A stretch of 31,150 nt of DNA from IMG/VR virus record IMGVR_UViG_2974731182_000001. One strand, given 5' to 3'. Below are positions 8,664-16,075 of this stretch, in pieces (position 1 is the stretch's first letter; every line of letters begins with the position of its first letter). The position numbers and the translations under genes were made by a program. The DNA comes from a virus (lineage: Duplodnaviria; Heunggongvirae; Uroviricota; Caudoviricetes; Crassvirales). The notes under the pieces were generated by a model, which did not search any database, was not told the origin of the DNA, and worked only from the letters and a program-made list of their open reading frames with translations.

Positions 8664-9704
8664 CTATTTTAACTTTGCTTCTAAAGAAAATTTCAATTCC
8701 TGGTGCTTAGGAGAATTAAGGAATTTAGCAGCTATATTCAGAGTAGGTTCCTCATTAATCTCACATAGAGGAGTATTATCACTCTTCAAGTATAAATAGT
8801 TTCCTCTACTTGAAATGAGGCCTGCTTCAATACTTTTCTTTATAAGAACCTTAGTACTAAGCAGGGGATCAGTAATCACTCTTAAAAAGAGTTTGCTGTC
8901 TGCTTGAATAAGACTATTAATTTTCGTTTGCAAAAATTCCAGTTTAGCAGTGGGAGATGTAGGTCTTCCGTCTATAGATTCTATTATTACTCTTAATGTA
9001 TCTATATCATTTTCTACCTTACCGAATTCCTTATAGCATCTCATAGTATTACTCATATTTCCTCTAGCAGATTTAATCTCATCACCTTCTGTTACAATAA
9101 CAAACTGATAGGTAGCTTTTGGATGGTCCTGTAATTCCTGTAATGAAGAAGCGATAAAATCTTTATTGGCTAGTAGTATCTTATATCTTATATAATCCTC
9201 CGGGTTAGATAAATCAAAATAATTATCTTGCTTCTTCAATGTTACCTTTGAAATTCCATTTTCGTTAGAGTCATCCCAGAAATTATCGACTTTCTTGTAG
9301 ATACTTAATGAATTATATTCAAGCCCCATAATTTCCTCTAGAAAAGCTTTCTCAGCATCTGTAAGAACATTTACAAACATACCAGAAGATAATCTAGGAA
9401 CTACGAATGTTCTGCTAGCATTTTCAGCCATTCCTCCATATAACACATGTTTGGGGTTTGTGATCATTCCTCCTTCTTTTGGTATATGTCTTACTATAAC
9501 TCTCTCTTTTCTCAAACAATTAATTAGAGCATTATTCTTTGCAGTGTTAGATTTCTCCAACACTTCAGAAGCATTGCTCTCTCCTTCAAGATTGTGATGC
9601 AACTTTGAAACCTCTCTCATAGAGACTTCTCTGATAGAATCTTCATCTATTTCAAATTCAGGTGTCTCGTAATTTATATTTTCTTCTACTTTATTTTTTG
9701 CCAT
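8664..9704 (-). CDS. Conserved crAss protein immediately downstream of MCP (function unknown)
   Basis: 346 aa ORF with phage-like composition; synteny downstream of MCP. Confidence 0.6.
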   Translation of the reverse strand: MAKNKVEENINYETPEFEIDEDSIREVSMREVSKLHHNLEGESNASEVLEKSNTAKNNALINCLRKERVIVRHIPKEGGMITNPKHVLYGGMAENASRTFVVPRLSSGMFVNVLTDAEKAFLEEIMGLEYNSLSIYKKVDNFWDDSNENGISKVTLKKQDNYFDLSNPEDYIRYKILLANKDFIASSLQELQDHPKATYQFVIVTEGDEIKSARGNMSNTMRCYKEFGKVENDIDTLRVIIESIDGRPTSPTAKLEFLQTKINSLIQADSKLFLRVITDPLLSTKVLIKKSIEAGLISSRGNYLYLKSDNTPLCEINEEPTLNIAAKFLNSPKHQELKFSLEAKLK

Positions 9705-9718
9705 ATCTTCTCCTTTCT

Positions 9719-9750
9719 AAAAAAAATAGGGAGTAGGAGTACCTACTCCC
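9719..9750 (-). terminator. Rho-independent terminator after MCP
   Basis: GGGAGTAGG-TACT-CCTACTCCC followed by TATTTTTTTT, just after the MCP stop at 9757. Confidence 0.8.
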
Positions 9751-9756
9751 ATCATA

Positions 9757-9905
9757 TTAACCCTGCAGTATAGCAGGAATAATTGACATAGTTCTCGTAG
9801 GATCAAGAACACAGATACCTAAAGTGGCCATTCTATGAATAACTGCCGAGTCCTCATCAAAAGACATATAGGGATTACCCTTCTGTCCTGTATATGGATT
9901 TCTCA
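9757..9905 (-). CDS. Major capsid protein exon 4 (C-terminus: LRNPYTGQKGNPYMSFDEDSAVIHRMATLG...IPAILQG)
   Basis: Follows the terminal G of intron 3. The exon start TGAGAAAT pairs with intron ATTTCTCA (P10). The sequence matches the crAss MCP C-terminus. Confidence 0.85.
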
Positions 9906-10749
9906 CATTTTTTTTTATGTTGCTAATACATCGTTTCCATGTATTATCTCTAACTTTCATTAGAGTTCGGACTATATCTTCATCACTTAATATTAAGTGA
10001 GCAAGGCGTTTCAGTAGTACTTACTACTTACTCCCATCTGGGATAGTCTCTGAACCTTCATATATACTAGTATATATGCTTGGCTGCTGATCATCCAATC
10101 TTTCACATTGTTTCTTTTTATGAATTATATTTTTGAGAGACTGATATTCTATATTAAAAAGTTTAGCTATTTGATTGACTGTATATAATTCTCTTAATTT
10201 CCCTATCTGATTAACTTGGAAATCTGTTAGAATAGTCTTCTTGGGAACTTGTTTACAAATTTTTCTTGAACCAAATTTAAATGAATGAATGACATTTTCT
10301 TTTGGAGTTACCCATTCAAGATTTTCTATTCTGTTATTAGTTCTATTCCCATCTATATGATTAACTATATCTCTATTCTTAGTTCTAGGGATAAATGCTT
10401 TGGCAACTAATCTATGGACTGGTTGAGAAGTCCATGTTCCATCAAGTCTTTGCACAGAGCATCTGTAGTAACCATCTCTATCTTTAGGAAATTCAGTCAA
10501 GATTCTCTCTTTTCTACTCTTATTAGCAGCTTTTCTTATTCTACCAATTGAGCTTACCTCTATGCCTTTATATTCTAGCAGAGGCTTCCATAATTCTTTA
10601 ACTTCCATATTTAAATGTTTGAAGTTTAAAAAGCAGTGAAAGCTCTAAGGAACTTCCAGCAATTAACCTTGTTTTTCTTTACTAGCTCTACTTCTGTTTC
10701 TAGGGGAGAACTTTGGGAGCTGAGAAATGTGTAAAGGCTTACGCCGTTA
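9906..10749 (-). mobile_element. Group I intron 3 of MCP (844 nt) carrying an HNH homing endonuclease
   Basis: P1 UGGGGGU/GCUCCCA with U-G at the splice site; P10 8 bp; P3 CAAGGT/GCCTTG; P4 TTGCTG/CAGCAG; R element TTCAGAGACTA; S element AAGATATAGTCC; terminal G. Confidence 0.9.
10024..10608 (-). CDS. Intron-encoded NUMOD4-HNH homing endonuclease
   Basis: [20 protein letters not shown] (NUMOD4-like), [11 protein letters not shown]...[23 protein letters not shown] (HNH), and a C-terminal HTH-like segment. Confidence 0.9.
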
Positions 10750-11241
10750 ACCCCCATTGATACCCTCTATATTCTGTATCACCTTTAATCTTACACTTAA
10801 AGATATTCGGCTGATCCATTGTTCCAATATACATAATATCATATCTGTAGGAATAAGCCACTCCTCCAAGAGGATGAAGTATCTTATTTCTAACTGGATC
10901 ATCGTACATAGGATCTACATCAATTTTAACTCTGACTCCATTGGGAGCTTTGTACTCAACAAATTGGAATCCTGCAGACAATGCATTTGTATGTAATCTA
11001 GACTGGGTTTTCTCTATTACTCTAGTAGAACTATTATCCAATACAAATTGGGTCCAACCTGAAACTACATTCAATACAGCTTTATGGAATTGGATAGCTC
11101 CTCTTTCACCTGTTTTGATTAAGAAATATCTATCACCAAAATCCAACTTGGATGCAGATAATTCATACAAGGCATCTTCAAGAAGTTTCAAGCTGAAAGT
11201 ATTATAATACATAGTATTAGCTACTTCCATTTGCTCAAATA
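10750..11241 (-). CDS. Major capsid protein exon 3 (LFEQMEVANTMYYN...RGYQWG)
   Basis: 492 nt, phase 1 at both ends; continuous with crAss MCP motifs (KTGERGAIQFH, NGVRVKIDVDPMYDDPVRNK). Confidence 0.9.
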
Positions 11242-12156
11242 CATTATGTTATCATAGTGGCTCTTTATCCACTATTTCTTCATATTACTATGAAGTTCGG
11301 ACTATATATTCATTTAGATTACCACATCTAAATGCAAAACTCTCGTGGAGCATTACTATTGTAATGTTGGGAGATCTCTTCCCAAGTTTTTAGTCTCTTT
11401 AAAGGCTCTAAGTTTAATATTATTTCTCAAGAGTATTCTTCTTATCGTACTCTTATTTTTACCAAACTTTTTCCCTATGTCTACTGTACTATAACCATCT
11501 AAATATAAATCTATTATCATAGACTCCTCAAGTTTATTAGTCTTCTGCAAATCTAAGCCATAAATTATATTAGATCTCTTTAATAGACTAGTAATATTAG
11601 GTACTCCAGTATGTAAAATTTTAGCTATTTTATATGCTGGAATCCCAGAATTGAACATGCTTATTATTAAGTCTTTGTCTAATTCTTTAGTGGTTCTAAT
11701 AACATTACCCCCAATAGACATATTATAACCAAATTTATTATCAGTAGAATTAAAATAAGAAATCCAGTACTTTTCTCTATCATTAAGTTCTTCTATAGTA
11801 CACTCTTCAAGTAATTCTATATAAAAGTTTTCTTCACCATATTTTCTTATCGCTTTACCTATAACATAGTCTTTGTTATTTCTTGCAGCAGATAAATGAT
11901 TTTGAAATCTCAATTTTAAGCTTACTTTAGTCTGTCCTATATAAACCTTATTATTTATAGTATTTCTTATTATATAGATTCTACCATATTTAGTCATAAT
12001 ATAAAGAGTTTCAACCTCTAGTCTCTACACTACTATAAGCTTTTTAGTTCCTATAGTTAGCTCGGTATTATCCATCTCAGGACTTCCACCGACTTAGTTT
12101 TGTTAATTTTAATTTCTTGACTGCTTATGCAGCTAGCTGGCCTATTTGAGCCTTTA
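11242..12156 (-). mobile_element. Group I intron 2 of MCP (915 nt) carrying a GIY-YIG homing endonuclease
   Basis: P1 GCUGGUU/GGCCAGC; P10 CTCAAATA/TATTTGAG; P3 CAAAACT/AGTTTTG; P7 GAGACTA...ATATAGTCC; terminal G at 11242. Confidence 0.9.
11356..11997 (-). CDS. Intron-encoded GIY-YIG homing endonuclease with two C-terminal HTH repeats
   Basis: GRIYIIRNTINNKVYIGQT...R...H, EKYWISYFNS...GYN; tandem HTH-like units (DLIISMFNSGIPAYKIAKIL / SMIIDLYLDGYSTVDIGKKF). Confidence 0.9.
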   Translation of the reverse strand: MTKYGRIYIIRNTINNKVYIGQTKVSLKLRFQNHLSAARNNKDYVIGKAIRKYGEENFYIELLEECTIEELNDREKYWISYFNSTDNKFGYNMSIGGNVIRTTKELDKDLIISMFNSGIPAYKIAKILHTGVPNITSLLKRSNIIYGLDLQKTNKLEESMIIDLYLDGYSTVDIGKKFGKNKSTIRRILLRNNIKLRAFKETKNLGRDLPTLQ

Positions 12157-12976
12157 AACCAGCACCTGTCTTAATCGCATTGCCTGATTTACCGATATTC
12201 ATATACTCCCCATTGGAATTTCTGTTAGAAGTACCAAACGCAAGAGCATTGTTTTTGTATTCAGAGAATTGTTGTTCAACTTCCCAATCTACATTATGCA
12301 TCCACGTGGTAGCTATAGACTTGGTAAGTCCTCCGTTCTCAGTTGCTTTAGTCATAGGTATGCCCACAGCAAGTTTCTTTGTAAGAGCAGAACCTGGAAC
12401 CTTATGTTGAATTCTTATTGTAGACCACTCATTTCTCATGGAAACAGGACTAGTGAATCTAACATCACCTACTTTCCTTGATAATTCCTTCTCTACTGGA
12501 GCGAAATCTACAGAGAATCTTTCCCCTGCAAGGAGTCTCTCTGCAGGGCATCCTGCAGTATTACCTCCCATCAACTCAACTTTGTACACCGCATTAGTTC
12601 CCTCCATTCTGGGGTCACCTAGTATTCTGAATGGATATACTTGGTTCAAATGACCAACAATTACTTCTCCATCAGCAAACCAGTCTTCAGGGAAGACTAA
12701 ATAAAAAGGAGTAGTACCAACACCAACATTAGGGCTTCCTGCAGTAACAGGAGTGCCATTCTCATCTCTTGCCTCTACAAGAGGAATATTTCTCCTTGAA
12801 GAACCTATTACATCCCAGTAATACTCAGTATCATCTTCAAATTCTCTAACTGGGAACTGATTTAGGAATGTGTCAAGGGTTTTACCTCTGTAATAGGCAA
12901 GCAATTGAACCATAAGGTTGGTAGCTTTTTGTGGAGCTAATTGGAAGATAGAACCCAAGTGGTTCTCTTTTGTTAA
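12157..12976 (-). CDS. Major capsid protein exon 2 (LTKENHLGSIFQLAPQKAT...KSGNAIKTGAG)
   Basis: 820 nt; strong match to the recalled crAss-like MCP sequence (YYWDVIGSSRRNIPLVEA, FTSPVSMRNEW). Confidence 0.92.
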
Positions 12977-13256
12977 CAATCTGTTATCCTAAGAGCTTTT
13001 TATCTCTTAGTTCTTACACTTTACCATTGTGTAAGTTCAGCATACATTTTCATACTATTCAGTATGTTGGATACTCGTGGAAGAATTATATTCTATGTGA
13101 TTATAAATACATGCTTTTCTAATCATAGTTTCATCTTCTATGCGTTACACTACCTTTATATATTATTATAAAGGTTAGCTCGGTATTACCCTTTAATTTT
13201 ATTTGGAGGGCTTCACCGATTTTACCCAATTTTACAAGGGCTTAACTTGTGAGTCA
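12977..13256 (-). ncRNA. Group I intron 1 of MCP (280 nt), no endonuclease gene
   Basis: P1 AAGGGU/GCCCUU; P10 GTTAA/TTAAC; P3 TTGGGTA/TATCCAA; P7 GCATA/TATGC; shares TAATACCGAGCTAAC and CCACGAG with intron 2; terminal G. Confidence 0.88.
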
Positions 13257-13310
13257 ACCCTTCCAATGTTGGAAACCTACCATCTGGAATTTTCCTAATT
13301 TTCCTGCCAT
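13257..13310 (-). CDS. Major capsid protein exon 1 (MAGKLGKFQMVGFQHWKG)
   Basis: 18 codons, below the ORF-track cutoff; matches the recalled crAss MCP N-terminus; followed at once by the TGA of the intron. Confidence 0.88.
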
Positions 13311-13364
13311 TTCTGTTGTTTTTTAATAGTTAGATATGTTTCATAAAATTATGAAAGACTTAGA

Positions 13365-14537
13365 CTACACATCTATTTCCCATCCTTTTCCAATAAAGGA
13401 CTCTGGATCATCTTCAACCCCACTTACAAATTTTAAATTTCCGTCTGATGTTCTTGATGTGTTGTTGAGAGTGTGTTCTAGCTCTCTAAGACCTTTCTTT
13501 ACTTCTTTTCTCACTTTATTCTTTACTAAATTATCCAAATTTTTAAAGCCATCAGTTAGTGTAAAAAGCAACCCAATATTCTTAAGAAATTCAGTTCTAT
13601 TCTCCATTTCATATCTCTGAATAGCTGTGAATAATTCTCCAGTCTCCGGGTCTTTATAAACAGGCTTACTTATATTATCATAAATCTTTCTTCTAGTTAC
13701 CTTGTCTACTTGTAAGTCTCCAAATATTTTAGTATCTTCAAGAATTAATCTTTTTAAATCTTCTGCCTGTTTTTTTCTCTTTTCCACTTCCTTTTGTTCT
13801 TCTTCCTTTGCTTCCTTTATAATATTATCATATTCTGTTTGGAAGAATTCTTTATTACTTGTCAGAGCCTCTTTAGCATCCTCTATATCAGTGCCAGAGC
13901 TAAATGATTTTTGCACTTCTCTTTGAGCTCTTTCAGCACTATACCCTCTATTTATAAAATCAGTATAAATAAGCCGTTTTCTTAATCTTTCCCCTTTATC
14001 ACTCTCATCAGTAATTTCACTCTCTTGAAGAGAGTTAAAGAACTCTAGAGCTTTCTCATATTTCTGAATTTCTGAAATATCCACTCCAGCATTTAGAGCC
14101 TCATCTATTCTCTTCTGTCTGTCATCTAACATAGAGTGAATTTGCTTATCTATAATCTCAGCAAAGTCTTCAGCTGAAGATATTCCTTCAACTTCATTAT
14201 CTTCAAGGGTTTGGAAGATACCTTCTTCTTTCAAGGCTTTGGCAACGGAAGAGTAGAAGTGTTTATTGGGAGAAGCATCCTTATCCTCTTTAGGAGAAGT
14301 ATCTTCCCTATCCCCTGTGTTATCCTCTTTTCCACTACCTACGCTCTCTGGTGAATCAGTAAATAAATTATCTACATCAATAACCTCAGTAGTTTCATTA
14401 TCTTTATCATTTTTATTTTCTTCAGGATTGTCCCCATCGTTATCTTGGGGAACCTCCTGTGTTTCTTCTTCCTCTGAGAATAGATTTTCTATTTCATCTG
14501 ATCCCAGAATATTGTCTAAACTAAGCTCTTCAGTCAT
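13365..14537 (-). CDS. Putative capsid scaffolding protein
   Basis: Very acidic N-terminus and coiled-coil C-terminal half; directly upstream of MCP. Confidence 0.65.
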   Translation of the reverse strand: MTEELSLDNILGSDEIENLFSEEEETQEVPQDNDGDNPEENKNDKDNETTEVIDVDNLFTDSPESVGSGKEDNTGDREDTSPKEDKDASPNKHFYSSVAKALKEEGIFQTLEDNEVEGISSAEDFAEIIDKQIHSMLDDRQKRIDEALNAGVDISEIQKYEKALEFFNSLQESEITDESDKGERLRKRLIYTDFINRGYSAERAQREVQKSFSSGTDIEDAKEALTSNKEFFQTEYDNIIKEAKEEEQKEVEKRKKQAEDLKRLILEDTKIFGDLQVDKVTRRKIYDNISKPVYKDPETGELFTAIQRYEMENRTEFLKNIGLLFTLTDGFKNLDNLVKNKVRKEVKKGLRELEHTLNNTSRTSDGNLKFVSGVEDDPESFIGKGWEIDV

Positions 14538-14695: not shown

Positions 14696-15328
14696 TTAGT
14701 TTTCCTTGAAATGATTCCACAATTTCGAATTACTCTTACAATCATCATCCTTGAACCAGAATAATATAGCTGCTTCAATGACTTTCTGGTCTATGTCTTC
14801 TCCAAACCATGACTTGAATAATTCACTACAGTTATGATAATGCTCGTTAATAGCTACATACACATCTGCATGAGTAAAAGATTGTGGGATAACTCCTCTA
14901 TATCTTTCACACACTTCTTTAGCCTTAGCCATACTGAATTTTTCACCAACATATTTTCTACCACCTTCATAATGGTACATGTTAGATACCAGATATTTTG
15001 CGTATGATTCATTAAAATGTTCATTTCCAGAGTTTTTCTTCTCTCTAGCCATTTTCATTATTTCATACATATCTTCTTCAGTCAAGCTATCGGACATTCT
15101 GTTAAATCTTTCAAAGAGACCTCCTCTACTTCTCTCCGGGTTAAATGAACTTGATATATCATGATGTCTGTTGGAGTCATAAGCACTTCCATACATTAAA
15201 TGGTAATCATCATTACTAGAGTGATTGTTTCTAGTATGTCCAGACATAAATTCCTTGAATTTATGCATGAATTCTTGTTCACTTATACCTTTACTTCTGA
15301 GATATTCCATCAACATAAGTTCATCCAT
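14696..15328 (-). CDS. Conserved Bacteroidota-phage hypothetical protein
   Basis: 210 aa; low-complexity N-terminal half and a conserved-looking C-terminal domain (HFNESYAKYLVSNM...DVYVAINEHYHN...FWFKDDD). Confidence 0.55.
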   Translation of the reverse strand: MDELMLMEYLRSKGISEQEFMHKFKEFMSGHTRNNHSSNDDYHLMYGSAYDSNRHHDISSSFNPERSRGGLFERFNRMSDSLTEEDMYEIMKMAREKKNSGNEHFNESYAKYLVSNMYHYEGGRKYVGEKFSMAKAKEVCERYRGVIPQSFTHADVYVAINEHYHNCSELFKSWFGEDIDQKVIEAAILFWFKDDDCKSNSKLWNHFKEN

Positions 15329-15332
15329 AATA

Positions 15333-15710
15333 TTATTCTTTAGTAATTAACATCTCTTTGAAACTCTCTAAATCTGTTGTATCAAATACTAACTTCTTAT
15401 CGGTAAGAGGAATACTGAATCCTATAGTTCCTCCTCCTATTTCTACATCTGAGTTATATAATCCTATATAATAAGCTTCCAAGATATTTAGAGACTCTGT
15501 AGCTTCTTCAACACTACTATACTCATGTCTCTCTATAACATCATACTTAAAATTTTTAGGACCATATTTAGCTCTAGCATTATCTATTTTAATTCCTGCG
15601 TACCTTTCTTTTGTCAAGAACGCATGTTTCCTTTCAGATTCATTAATAGTTTTCCCCACATAAATTTTATTGCTAGGGCTAGTGTACTTATAAATTATTC
15701 CTGTAATCAT
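15333..15710 (-). pseudogene. Chimeric ORF: GIY-YIG catalytic domain fused to an unrelated C-terminus
   Basis: MITGIIYKYTSPSNKIYVGKT...EAYYIGLYNS then an abrupt change to DVEIGGGTIGFSIPLTDKKLVFDTTDLESFKEMLITKE. The usual GYN motif and DNA-binding tail are missing. Confidence 0.65.
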
Positions 15711-15856
15711 ATCATTATATTTTATAAGTACAAAGTTAATGAGTGTTATTGGAACAAGCAATAGTATAATTGGAACATTAAAGCTTAGCTGCTGATTGTC
15801 CTTTTAAAGGAGTTTCCAGCAATTAAGGGAATTTATACTGAGCATAATTATAGTTT
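15450..15856 (-). mobile_element. 5' half of a group I intron (truncated)
   Basis: P1 ACUGGGU/GCUCAGU; P4-P5 TTAATTGCTGGAAACTCCTTTAAAAGGACAATCAGCAGC, near-identical to intron 3. I found no P7 (GACTA/TAGTC) or 3' splice site downstream. Confidence 0.75.
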
Positions 15857-15970
15857 ACCCAGTGTCAACCCAGCATTAGCTTTGCCATTGATGTCTTTTC
15901 TGCCATAGCCATACCCATAGTTGCCATCAACAGGAACCTCTTTGATTGTTTGCTTTTCAATAATTTCCAT
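15857..15970 (-). pseudogene. Orphan 5' exon (MEIIEKQTIKEVPVDGNYGYGYGRKDINGKANAGLTLG)
   Basis: 38 codons ending in GGT at the P1 splice site; no matching 3' exon in the window. Confidence 0.65.
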
Positions 15971-16027
15971 AATAGCAATTTTTGAAATTAGTTAATATTC
16001 TATTTATTCTTGTAAGCTTACATGATA

Positions 16028-16035
16028 CAAAGATA
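16028..16035 (-). promoter_or_regulatory. Bacteroidota -7 element TATCTTTG upstream of the 15970 gene
   Basis: The -7 motif is present, but there is no TTG at the N20 spacing. Confidence 0.4.
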
Positions 16036-16075
16036 TAAATAGAATATTGTGAATCCTATTGATGCTAAGGTAAAC

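Follow-up and report, generated by a model that had tools for sequence, protein, structure and literature searches.

Three predicted group I introns in the major capsid protein gene of a Steigviridae-like crAss phage

The window analysed here is a 31,150-nucleotide (nt) stretch of Crassvirales phage DNA (IMG/VR record IMGVR_UViG_2974731182_000001), in which the major capsid protein (MCP) gene lies on the minus strand between positions 9757 and 13310 and is divided into four pieces by inserts of 280, 915 and 844 nt. Judging from the sequence it is highly probable that this gene has been invaded by three self-splicing mobile group I introns, of which two look competent for homing, the third being a remnant. 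That they splice themselves out, that their endonucleases are active and that homing takes place is what we infer from these features, and the view that the introns are ordinary selfish mobile elements is well supported. The gene is that of a Steigviridae-like (phiCrAss001-like, Beta) crAss phage, and the nearest public records are the Steigviridae/Asinivirinae crAss-like phages cr85_1, cr106_1, cr112_1 and cr116_1, the PhiCrAssBcn isolates (grown on Bacteroides intestinalis) and bajarodcaudo virus 1.

The joined capsid reading frame and its uninterrupted relatives

When the four exons are joined (54+820+492+149 = 1515 nt) they give a frameshift-free reading frame of 504 amino acids (aa) plus a stop codon. 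An original prediction, made from the letters alone, had proposed exactly these exons, and translation, Pfam and the protein structure PDB 7QOF all bear it out. Exon 1 encodes 18 residues identical or near-identical to the start of the cr85_1 and cr106_1 MCPs; exon 2 covers positions 18-285 of the Pfam Crass_capsid profile (PF23898, E 1.5e-111) and residues 19-291 of 7QOF, the solved 504-aa phiCrAss001 capsid protein gp32 (E 1.4e-151); exon 3 continues along the Crass_capsid profile at positions 287-448 (E 3.2e-76); and exon 4 corresponds to positions 452-494 of PHROG 11589, a major head protein family. The spliced MCP is thus colinear with both Crass_capsid and 7QOF. Alignment to intron-less crAss MCPs had been suggested as a check of the prediction, and against the uninterrupted MCPs of cr85_1 and cr106_1 the spliced protein shows zero indels at all junctions, with 84-90% protein identity to intron-less MCPs.

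The insertion points fall after codon 18, inside codon 292 and inside codon 456, each within a highly conserved peptide motif, and the junction peptides HWKG|LTKENH, TGAGLFEQMEVAN and YQWGLRNP are conserved in the alignment with the cr85_1 and cr106_1 MCPs. At the second junction (TGAG-L-FEQMEV) a Leu codon is split as T|TA, and at the third (YQWG-L-RNPY) as T|TG. Read-through past the first, second and third 5' splice sites meets a stop after 0, 9 and 3 codons respectively, in line with the roughly ten-codon limit first proposed, and because of these stops unspliced RNA cannot make capsid. As had also been noticed at the outset, the list of open reading frames (ORFs) shows the MCP gene only as fragments with false TTG/ATG starts. 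The ratio of non-synonymous to synonymous substitution rates (dN/dS) of the spliced coding sequence against intron-less alleles is 0.02-0.04, and therefore the interrupted gene is functional, under strong purifying selection, and must be expressed.

To see the same locus in relatives, we mapped the MCP on the best 80 of 336 IMG/VR relatives and on 5 GenBank loci. Introns are wholly absent from the MCP gene in roughly three quarters of 84 related loci, and at the DNA level the empty alleles are exactly the predicted ligated exons. L006, L008, L009 and L011 (L numbers designate individual loci) show the same three introns as the window, and at least five independent contigs, each about 92-98 kb long, have this arrangement. 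On L007 and L010, whose MCPs are 97-99% identical at the amino acid level, only the first intron is present and introns 2 and 3 are absent, while L012-L018, with 91-94% identical MCPs, have none of the three. Since near-identical phages lack introns 2 and 3, and most relatives lack any, the introns are not required, and their behaviour is that of mobile selfish elements.

Empty alleles at the two sites that we call A and B carry A or C at position -1, whereas occupied alleles carry the T required for the U.G pair of the first ribozyme helix. At these sites (window positions 12157 and 13257; empty sites of L012 and L007) the Leu codon is CTA or CTT in intron-less alleles and TTA in intron-bearing ones. 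This synonymous difference tracks occupancy and may reflect a target preference, co-conversion or the U.G requirement itself.

Across the clade the MCP gene holds at least six intron sites (codons 18/19, 61/62, 121/122, 291/292, ~337 and 455/456) that are patchily occupied and involve three endonuclease families; bajarodcaudo virus 1 occupies five of the six. Further MCP introns are located at positions 1453-2333 and 3887-4859 of L001 (bajarodcaudo virus 1, PQ006092), corresponding to codons 121/122 (with a GIY-YIG ORF) and ~337 (with a LAGLIDADG_2 ORF placed in P6), and at positions 1120-2073 of L003 (cr116_1, NC_055882), corresponding to codons 61/62 (with an HNH ORF).

Table 1. Positions of the MCP exons, the predicted introns with their helices, and the intron-borne ORFs in the window (IGS, internal guide sequence; families as defined in the text)
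Feature	Positions	Strand	Description
MCP exon 1	13257..13310	-	ATG at 13310; codons 1-18, ending TGG AAG GGT
MCP exon 2	12157..12976	-	Codons 19-291 and base 1 of codon 292
MCP exon 3	10750..11241	-	From base 2 of codon 292 through base 1 of codon 456
MCP exon 4	9757..9905	-	Last 2 bases of codon 456 to stop at 9759-9757
Intron 1	12977..13256	-	280 nt, ORF-less, predicted family 1; partial RF00028 match, 20.7 bits
Intron 1 helices	IGS GCCCUU 13241-13236; P4 13219-13214/13185-13180; P7 13145-13139/13044-13039	-	
Intron 2	11242..12156	-	915 nt, predicted group I, family 1; P1 and P3 covary with the L001 copy
Intron 2 helices	IGS GGCCAGC 12142-12136; P3 12102-12096/11341-11335; P7 12025-12019/11304-11299	-	
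Intron 2 ORF	11356..11997	-	213-aa predicted GIY-YIG homing endonuclease with C-terminal helix-turn-helix (HTH), in the P7.1/P7.2 region
Intron 3	9906..10749	-	844 nt, predicted group I, family 2; RF00028 and covariation
Intron 3 helices	IGS GCUCCCA 10720-10714; P3 10671-10667/10006-10002; P4 10662-10657/10089-10084	-	
Intron 3 helices, continued	P7 10050-10044/9974-9969; P7.1 10043-10032; P7.2 10027-10014	-	
Intron 3 ORF	10024..10608	-	194-aa predicted NUMOD4 and HNH_3 homing endonuclease

Splice sites, ribozyme folds and covariation

All three introns are immediately preceded by T and end in G (at 12977, 11242 and 9906 for introns 1, 2 and 3). By sequence alone each junction could be slid by 1 nt with the mRNA unchanged, and the boundary coordinates were chosen because of the U(-1)/terminal-G rule. 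This rule holds for every insert in every locus except the two of cr116_1, where the boundary search was imprecise. Each intron presents a P1 pairing between the end of the 5' exon and the IGS, with a U.G pair at the P1 end: AAGGGU/GCCCUU in intron 1, GCUGGUU/GGCCAGC in intron 2 and UGGGGGU/GCUCCCA in intron 3. The junction peptides, the flanking U and terminal G, and the P1 pairings are all as originally proposed. A guide stretch immediately 5' of each IGS pairs with the 3' exon to form a P10 of 5, 9 and 8 bp respectively; the earlier lengths for introns 1 and 3 stand, and that of intron 2, given as 8 bp, can be drawn with 9. Exon and guide also change together between relatives. In intron 3 the UGGGGGU/GCUCCCA of the window is replaced by UGGGGAU/GUUCCCA in L001, L028 and L031, and in intron 2 the GCUGG/CCAGC of the window by GCAGG/CCUGC in L001.

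The introns fall into two families: family 1 is made up of introns 1 and 2 together with the site-122 and site-337 introns of L001, and family 2 of intron 3 and its homologues. All three introns display the group I core topology P3-[P4-P5-P6]-P7-P3'-P8-P7' with R and S elements, and within the window R/S-like motifs were found at the three introns only. Family 1 shares a common P4 pair (UCGGUG/UACCGA), an R-like element, GUGUA(A/G)(C/A)G(C/A)(A/C/G)UAGA, and an S-like element, AU(G/A)UA(U/G)(G/U)C. Its P3 shows compensatory changes in all seven of its pairs (variants UUGGGUA/UAUCCAA, CAAAACU/AGUUUUG, CAAGACU/AGUCUUG and UUGGGAA/UUCCCAA), its P7 covaries as GCAUA/UAUGC, GACUA/UAGUC and GAGUA/UACUC, with the closing pair across the bulge covarying too (A-U versus G-C), and six of the seven P9.1 pairs covary. 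Over 35 long-range or well-aligned pairs of this family, 94.8% of cells are canonical, as against 30-45% when the partners are displaced by sliding, and none of 500 column shuffles exceeds 83%. Family 2 carries the classic elements, with P4 formed by AAUUGCUGGAA and AUCAGCAGCC, R being GGUUCAGAGACUA and S being GAAGAUAUAGUCC; it has P7.1 and P7.2 hairpins between P7 and P3', a GAAA loop in P9, and compensatory changes in P1, P2, P3, P7, P7.2, P8 and P9. Introns 1 and 2 have their ORF site inside a P7.1-type stem. From P7.1/P7.2, the architecture of the introns is predicted to be IA-like (phage-type). For the short intron 1 the folding z-score with 12-nt exon flanks is -4.57, and the minimum free energy structure contains P1, P4, P5, P6, P8, P9 and P9.1.

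The curated Rfam group I model (RF00028, Intron_gpI; gathering cut-off 50 bits) gives matches in part. For intron 3, the 3' core without the ORF (9948-10125) reaches 55.2 bits with E 1e-13, above the cut-off, and ORF-less intron 3 homologues score 77 bits in L001, at the same capsid site, and 72.9 bits in cr116_1, adjoining the same site. For the intron 3 core and these homologues the model reproduces our assignment of P3, P4, P6, P7, P8 and P9, and the alignment displays P7.1/P7.2 as an insertion between P7 and P3'. In the nearest virus record RF00028 matches at the same three places.

Several observations weigh against the group I assignment. At the gathering threshold a search of the whole window returned zero Intron_gpI matches, as did a search at E<=10 of positions 9600-13500. 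The ORF-free parts of introns 1 and 2 match RF00028 only partially (20.7 and 20.0 bits, E 0.003), far below the cut-off, the model ranking first by score for intron 2 and third for intron 1. The covariation alignments were our own, with only 16 rows for family 1 and 8 for family 2, many of the rows being closely related, and the P7.1 of intron 2 is a weak stem of 3 bp. The ORF-free sub-stretches and the ORF-less homologues show that ORF insertions and filters account for the whole-window miss, and an early negative reading of Rfam was dropped once the ORF-free re-runs had scored the intron 3 core and its homologues above the cut-off. A covariance-model search, suggested at the outset, thus speaks for the core of intron 3 and falls short, at about 20 bits, for introns 1 and 2; since these two lie below the gathering cut-off, their group I assignment rests on covariation and the splice-site rules. 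Taken with the intron-less alleles, covariation and Rfam support the original prediction of three group I introns.

The nearest genome, G001, is a 2.1-Mb, 66%-complete metagenome-assembled genome, whose contig C350 (6354-9625) bears the same three MCP intron matches; this contig probably comes from a phage and was binned with the rest. Strong RF00028 matches of 54-83 bits are also present on five more contigs of G001 (C22, C52, C203, C413 and C96).

Endonuclease genes and the mobility of the introns

The ORF of intron 2 matches Pfam GIY-YIG (1.1e-8) and HTH_23, and a PHROG homing endonuclease family at 1.5e-29; that of intron 3 matches Pfam HNH_3 (4.6e-13) and NUMOD4 (8.5e-7), and a PHROG HNH endonuclease family at 4e-39. 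The intron 3 ORF begins within the loop of P5a; over its last ~100 nt it overlaps P5a', P4', P6, P7 and P7.1, and its stop codon lies in P7.2. Overlap of an ORF with a ribozyme core is known, and is thought to require controlled expression of the ORF (PMC3984707). Introns 2 and 3 therefore combine the two features of a homing intron, namely a predicted intron-encoded endonuclease and presence/absence polymorphism at a precise site.

Intron 1, on the other hand, has no ORF in the window. The same intron measures 837-839 nt in L029, L046, L054, L055 and L059, where it holds an intact 207-210-aa GIY-YIG gene, and 538 nt in L010 and L007, where the ORF is truncated; relative to the L029-type copies, the window copy has undergone a clean deletion of ~558 nt that kept the ATG and the last ~25 nt of the ORF. 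It is a remnant that has lost its GIY-YIG gene and would now only splice, a point absent from the original prediction; such decay is as would be expected from the invasion-decay-loss cycle of homing elements. Without an endonuclease, intron 1 cannot direct its own homing.

A comparison of the window with L011 points to recent movement. The exons differ at 161 of 1515 nt (10.6%), including 137 of the 505 third codon positions, while the introns differ at 0 of 280, 14 of 915 and 0 of 844 nt (0-1.5%). Because the introns are so much less diverged than the exons, recent horizontal spread among relatives by homing or recombination is suggested. Co-conversion tracts sought near the junctions in the same pair were unconvincing, the difference-free gaps being only ~27-99 nt. 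The intron cores are also 69-87% identical at the DNA level to stretches lying next to endonucleases in phages of Staphylococcus, Clostridioides, Bacillus, E. coli, Flavobacterium and Vibrio (the E. coli phage match lies within a DNA polymerase gene), and therefore belong to widely travelled phage intron families.

If these introns act as other group I introns do, the late pre-mRNA would fold so that each IGS pairs with the end of its 5' exon, placing a U.G pair at the cleavage site. An exogenous guanosine bound in P7 would attack the 5' splice site; with the 3' exon positioned by P10, the exons would then be ligated by way of the terminal G, the product being one 504-codon mRNA. At the DNA level, the GIY-YIG enzyme of intron 2 and the HNH enzyme of intron 3 are presumed to cleave those capsid alleles of co-infecting relatives that lack the intron, and the intron would then be copied into the cut allele.

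Elsewhere in the window, L010 lacks a ~748-nt segment (15311-16058, minus strand), part of which (window positions ~15449-15856) is replaced in L006 by another segment of ~1.5 kb. A 142-aa ORF (15333-15761, minus strand), just upstream of a DUF7841 gene (14696-15328), has zero Pfam matches and weak similarity to GIY-YIG homing endonucleases (PHROG 314, E 1.7e-12). The family-2 P4 motif AATTGCTG occurs at 15824.

Known systems and alternative explanations

Yutin et al. 2021 (PMC7886860; reviewed in PMC10136315) reported group I introns with endonuclease domains for the MCP genes of two groups of crAss-like phages, Delta (Suoliviridae) and Zeta, and described one Zeta MCP as five fragments. The original prediction was thus correct in stating that such introns had been reported. 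The introns of those reports were identified by protein domains and lie in other lineages than the Steigviridae-like (Beta) window, for which splice sites and RNA fold are here defined to the base. In the literature we did not find MCP introns described for the Steigviridae-like group, nor any record with defined splice sites. The closest likeness is bajarodcaudo virus 1, which has introns with homologous ribozymes at all three sites of the window, and whose GenBank record (PQ006092) names an 'intron associated endonuclease' inside a fragmented MCP. Its second-site copy has a homologous GIY-YIG ORF and its first- and third-site copies are ORF-less; it differs in having two extra introns, one at codons 121/122 and one, bearing a LAGLIDADG ORF, at codon ~337. 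In cr116_1 (NC_055882) the ORF-less intron 3 homologue is accompanied by another intron at codons 61/62. Intron boundaries and joined coding sequences are unannotated in both records.

Beyond the crAss-like phages, phage IA introns such as those of T4 td, nrdB and nrdD and of phage Twort combine a P7.1/P7.2 core with intron-borne homing endonucleases, and a single Twort gene, orf142, is reportedly interrupted by three group I introns (Landthaler & Shub 1999, cited in PMC6669764). Host gene and phage lineage are different in the Twort and T4 cases, and there splicing has been shown experimentally, whereas for the window we infer it. We consider the window introns an ordinary, additional case of a kind already reported in crAss-like capsid genes, with no new mechanism.

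The alternative that survives best is compatible with selfish homing. It holds that the endonucleases cut the capsid gene of co-infecting intron-less relatives and so bring about interference competition or marker exclusion, which we regard as a minority possibility. A precedent exists in phage PhiPA3, whose intron endonuclease gp210 was shown to act against PhiKZ in competition (PMC11620839). Consistent with such a role, both the GIY-YIG and HNH ORFs are intact, intron-plus and intron-less alleles occur among the contigs of one IMG data set (3300045988), and the introns are nearly identical across exons diverged by 10.6%; simple selfish homing, however, explains the same data. Somewhat more tentatively still, the two endonuclease-bearing introns might serve as weapons between co-circulating crAss strains, converting or excluding intron-less relatives at co-infection by cutting their essential capsid gene. 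If this were true, the MCP intron load would drive strain replacement in the human gut virome; the near-identity of the introns over such diverged exons fits very recent sweeps.

The original prediction had further suggested that dependence on three ribozyme reactions could set the timing of capsid synthesis or restrict it, and that assembly could become sensitive to Mg2+ or GTP; on this reading the introns would be retained for such an effect. It is true that unspliced RNA makes no capsid, given stops within 0-9 codons, and that group I introns in principle depend on Mg2+ and guanosine. Nevertheless, phages with 97-99% identical MCPs do without introns 2 and 3, about three quarters of the 84 loci do without any MCP intron, and occupancy is patchy over the six sites; moreover, the introns are far less diverged than the exons, which is a signature of invasion and not of long-term retention, and intron 1 shows the decay usual for homing elements. 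Regulation of capsid synthesis is consequently improbable as the reason for their presence, and this part of the prediction is not sustained.

Still less credible is that no splicing takes place at all, the capsid gene being either broken (in a defective phage or as a pseudogene) or expressed as separate polypeptides around free-standing endonuclease insertions. Automatic annotation of relatives does list separate 'major capsid protein' fragments, yet dN/dS is 0.02-0.04 over all four exons, exon 1 amounts to merely 18 codons, exons 2-4 have no genuine starts, two of the junctions split a codon and nonetheless restore a conserved Leu, the same arrangement stands on at least five independent ~92-98 kb contigs, and the ribozyme folds are conserved with covariation. 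Finally, phage genes are also known to contain inteins and group II introns (PMC7886860, PMC12350094), but we give such an identity of the inserts almost no weight: in-frame stops after each junction and endonuclease ORFs out of frame with the capsid rule out inteins, and a group II origin was rejected in view of the absence of a reverse transcriptase/maturase ORF and the presence of R/S elements, the P3-P7 pseudoknot topology and RF00028 matches, which are group I features.

With mobile group I introns as the preferred explanation, the main value of this work is in annotation, given that records of the window phage and of several relatives show the MCP in fragments or would miscall it; with the exact splice sites, the correct joined coding sequence can be given. 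A second lesson is that phage group I introns that bear ORFs and are AU-rich escape Rfam scans of a whole window. With at least six patchily occupied sites, the phiCrAss001-like clade lends itself well, as a natural system, to studies of homing and of how introns are gained and lost in the most abundant phages of the human gut.

The MCP stop codon is followed directly, at 9717-9752 (minus strand), by a GC-rich hairpin, GGGAGUAGGUACUCCUACUCCC, and then by eight U residues in a row, which together look like an intrinsic terminator. The Bacteroidetes FopS small RNA model matches weakly here with its 3' end (20.7 bits, E 6.8), a match that we take to be the terminator only.

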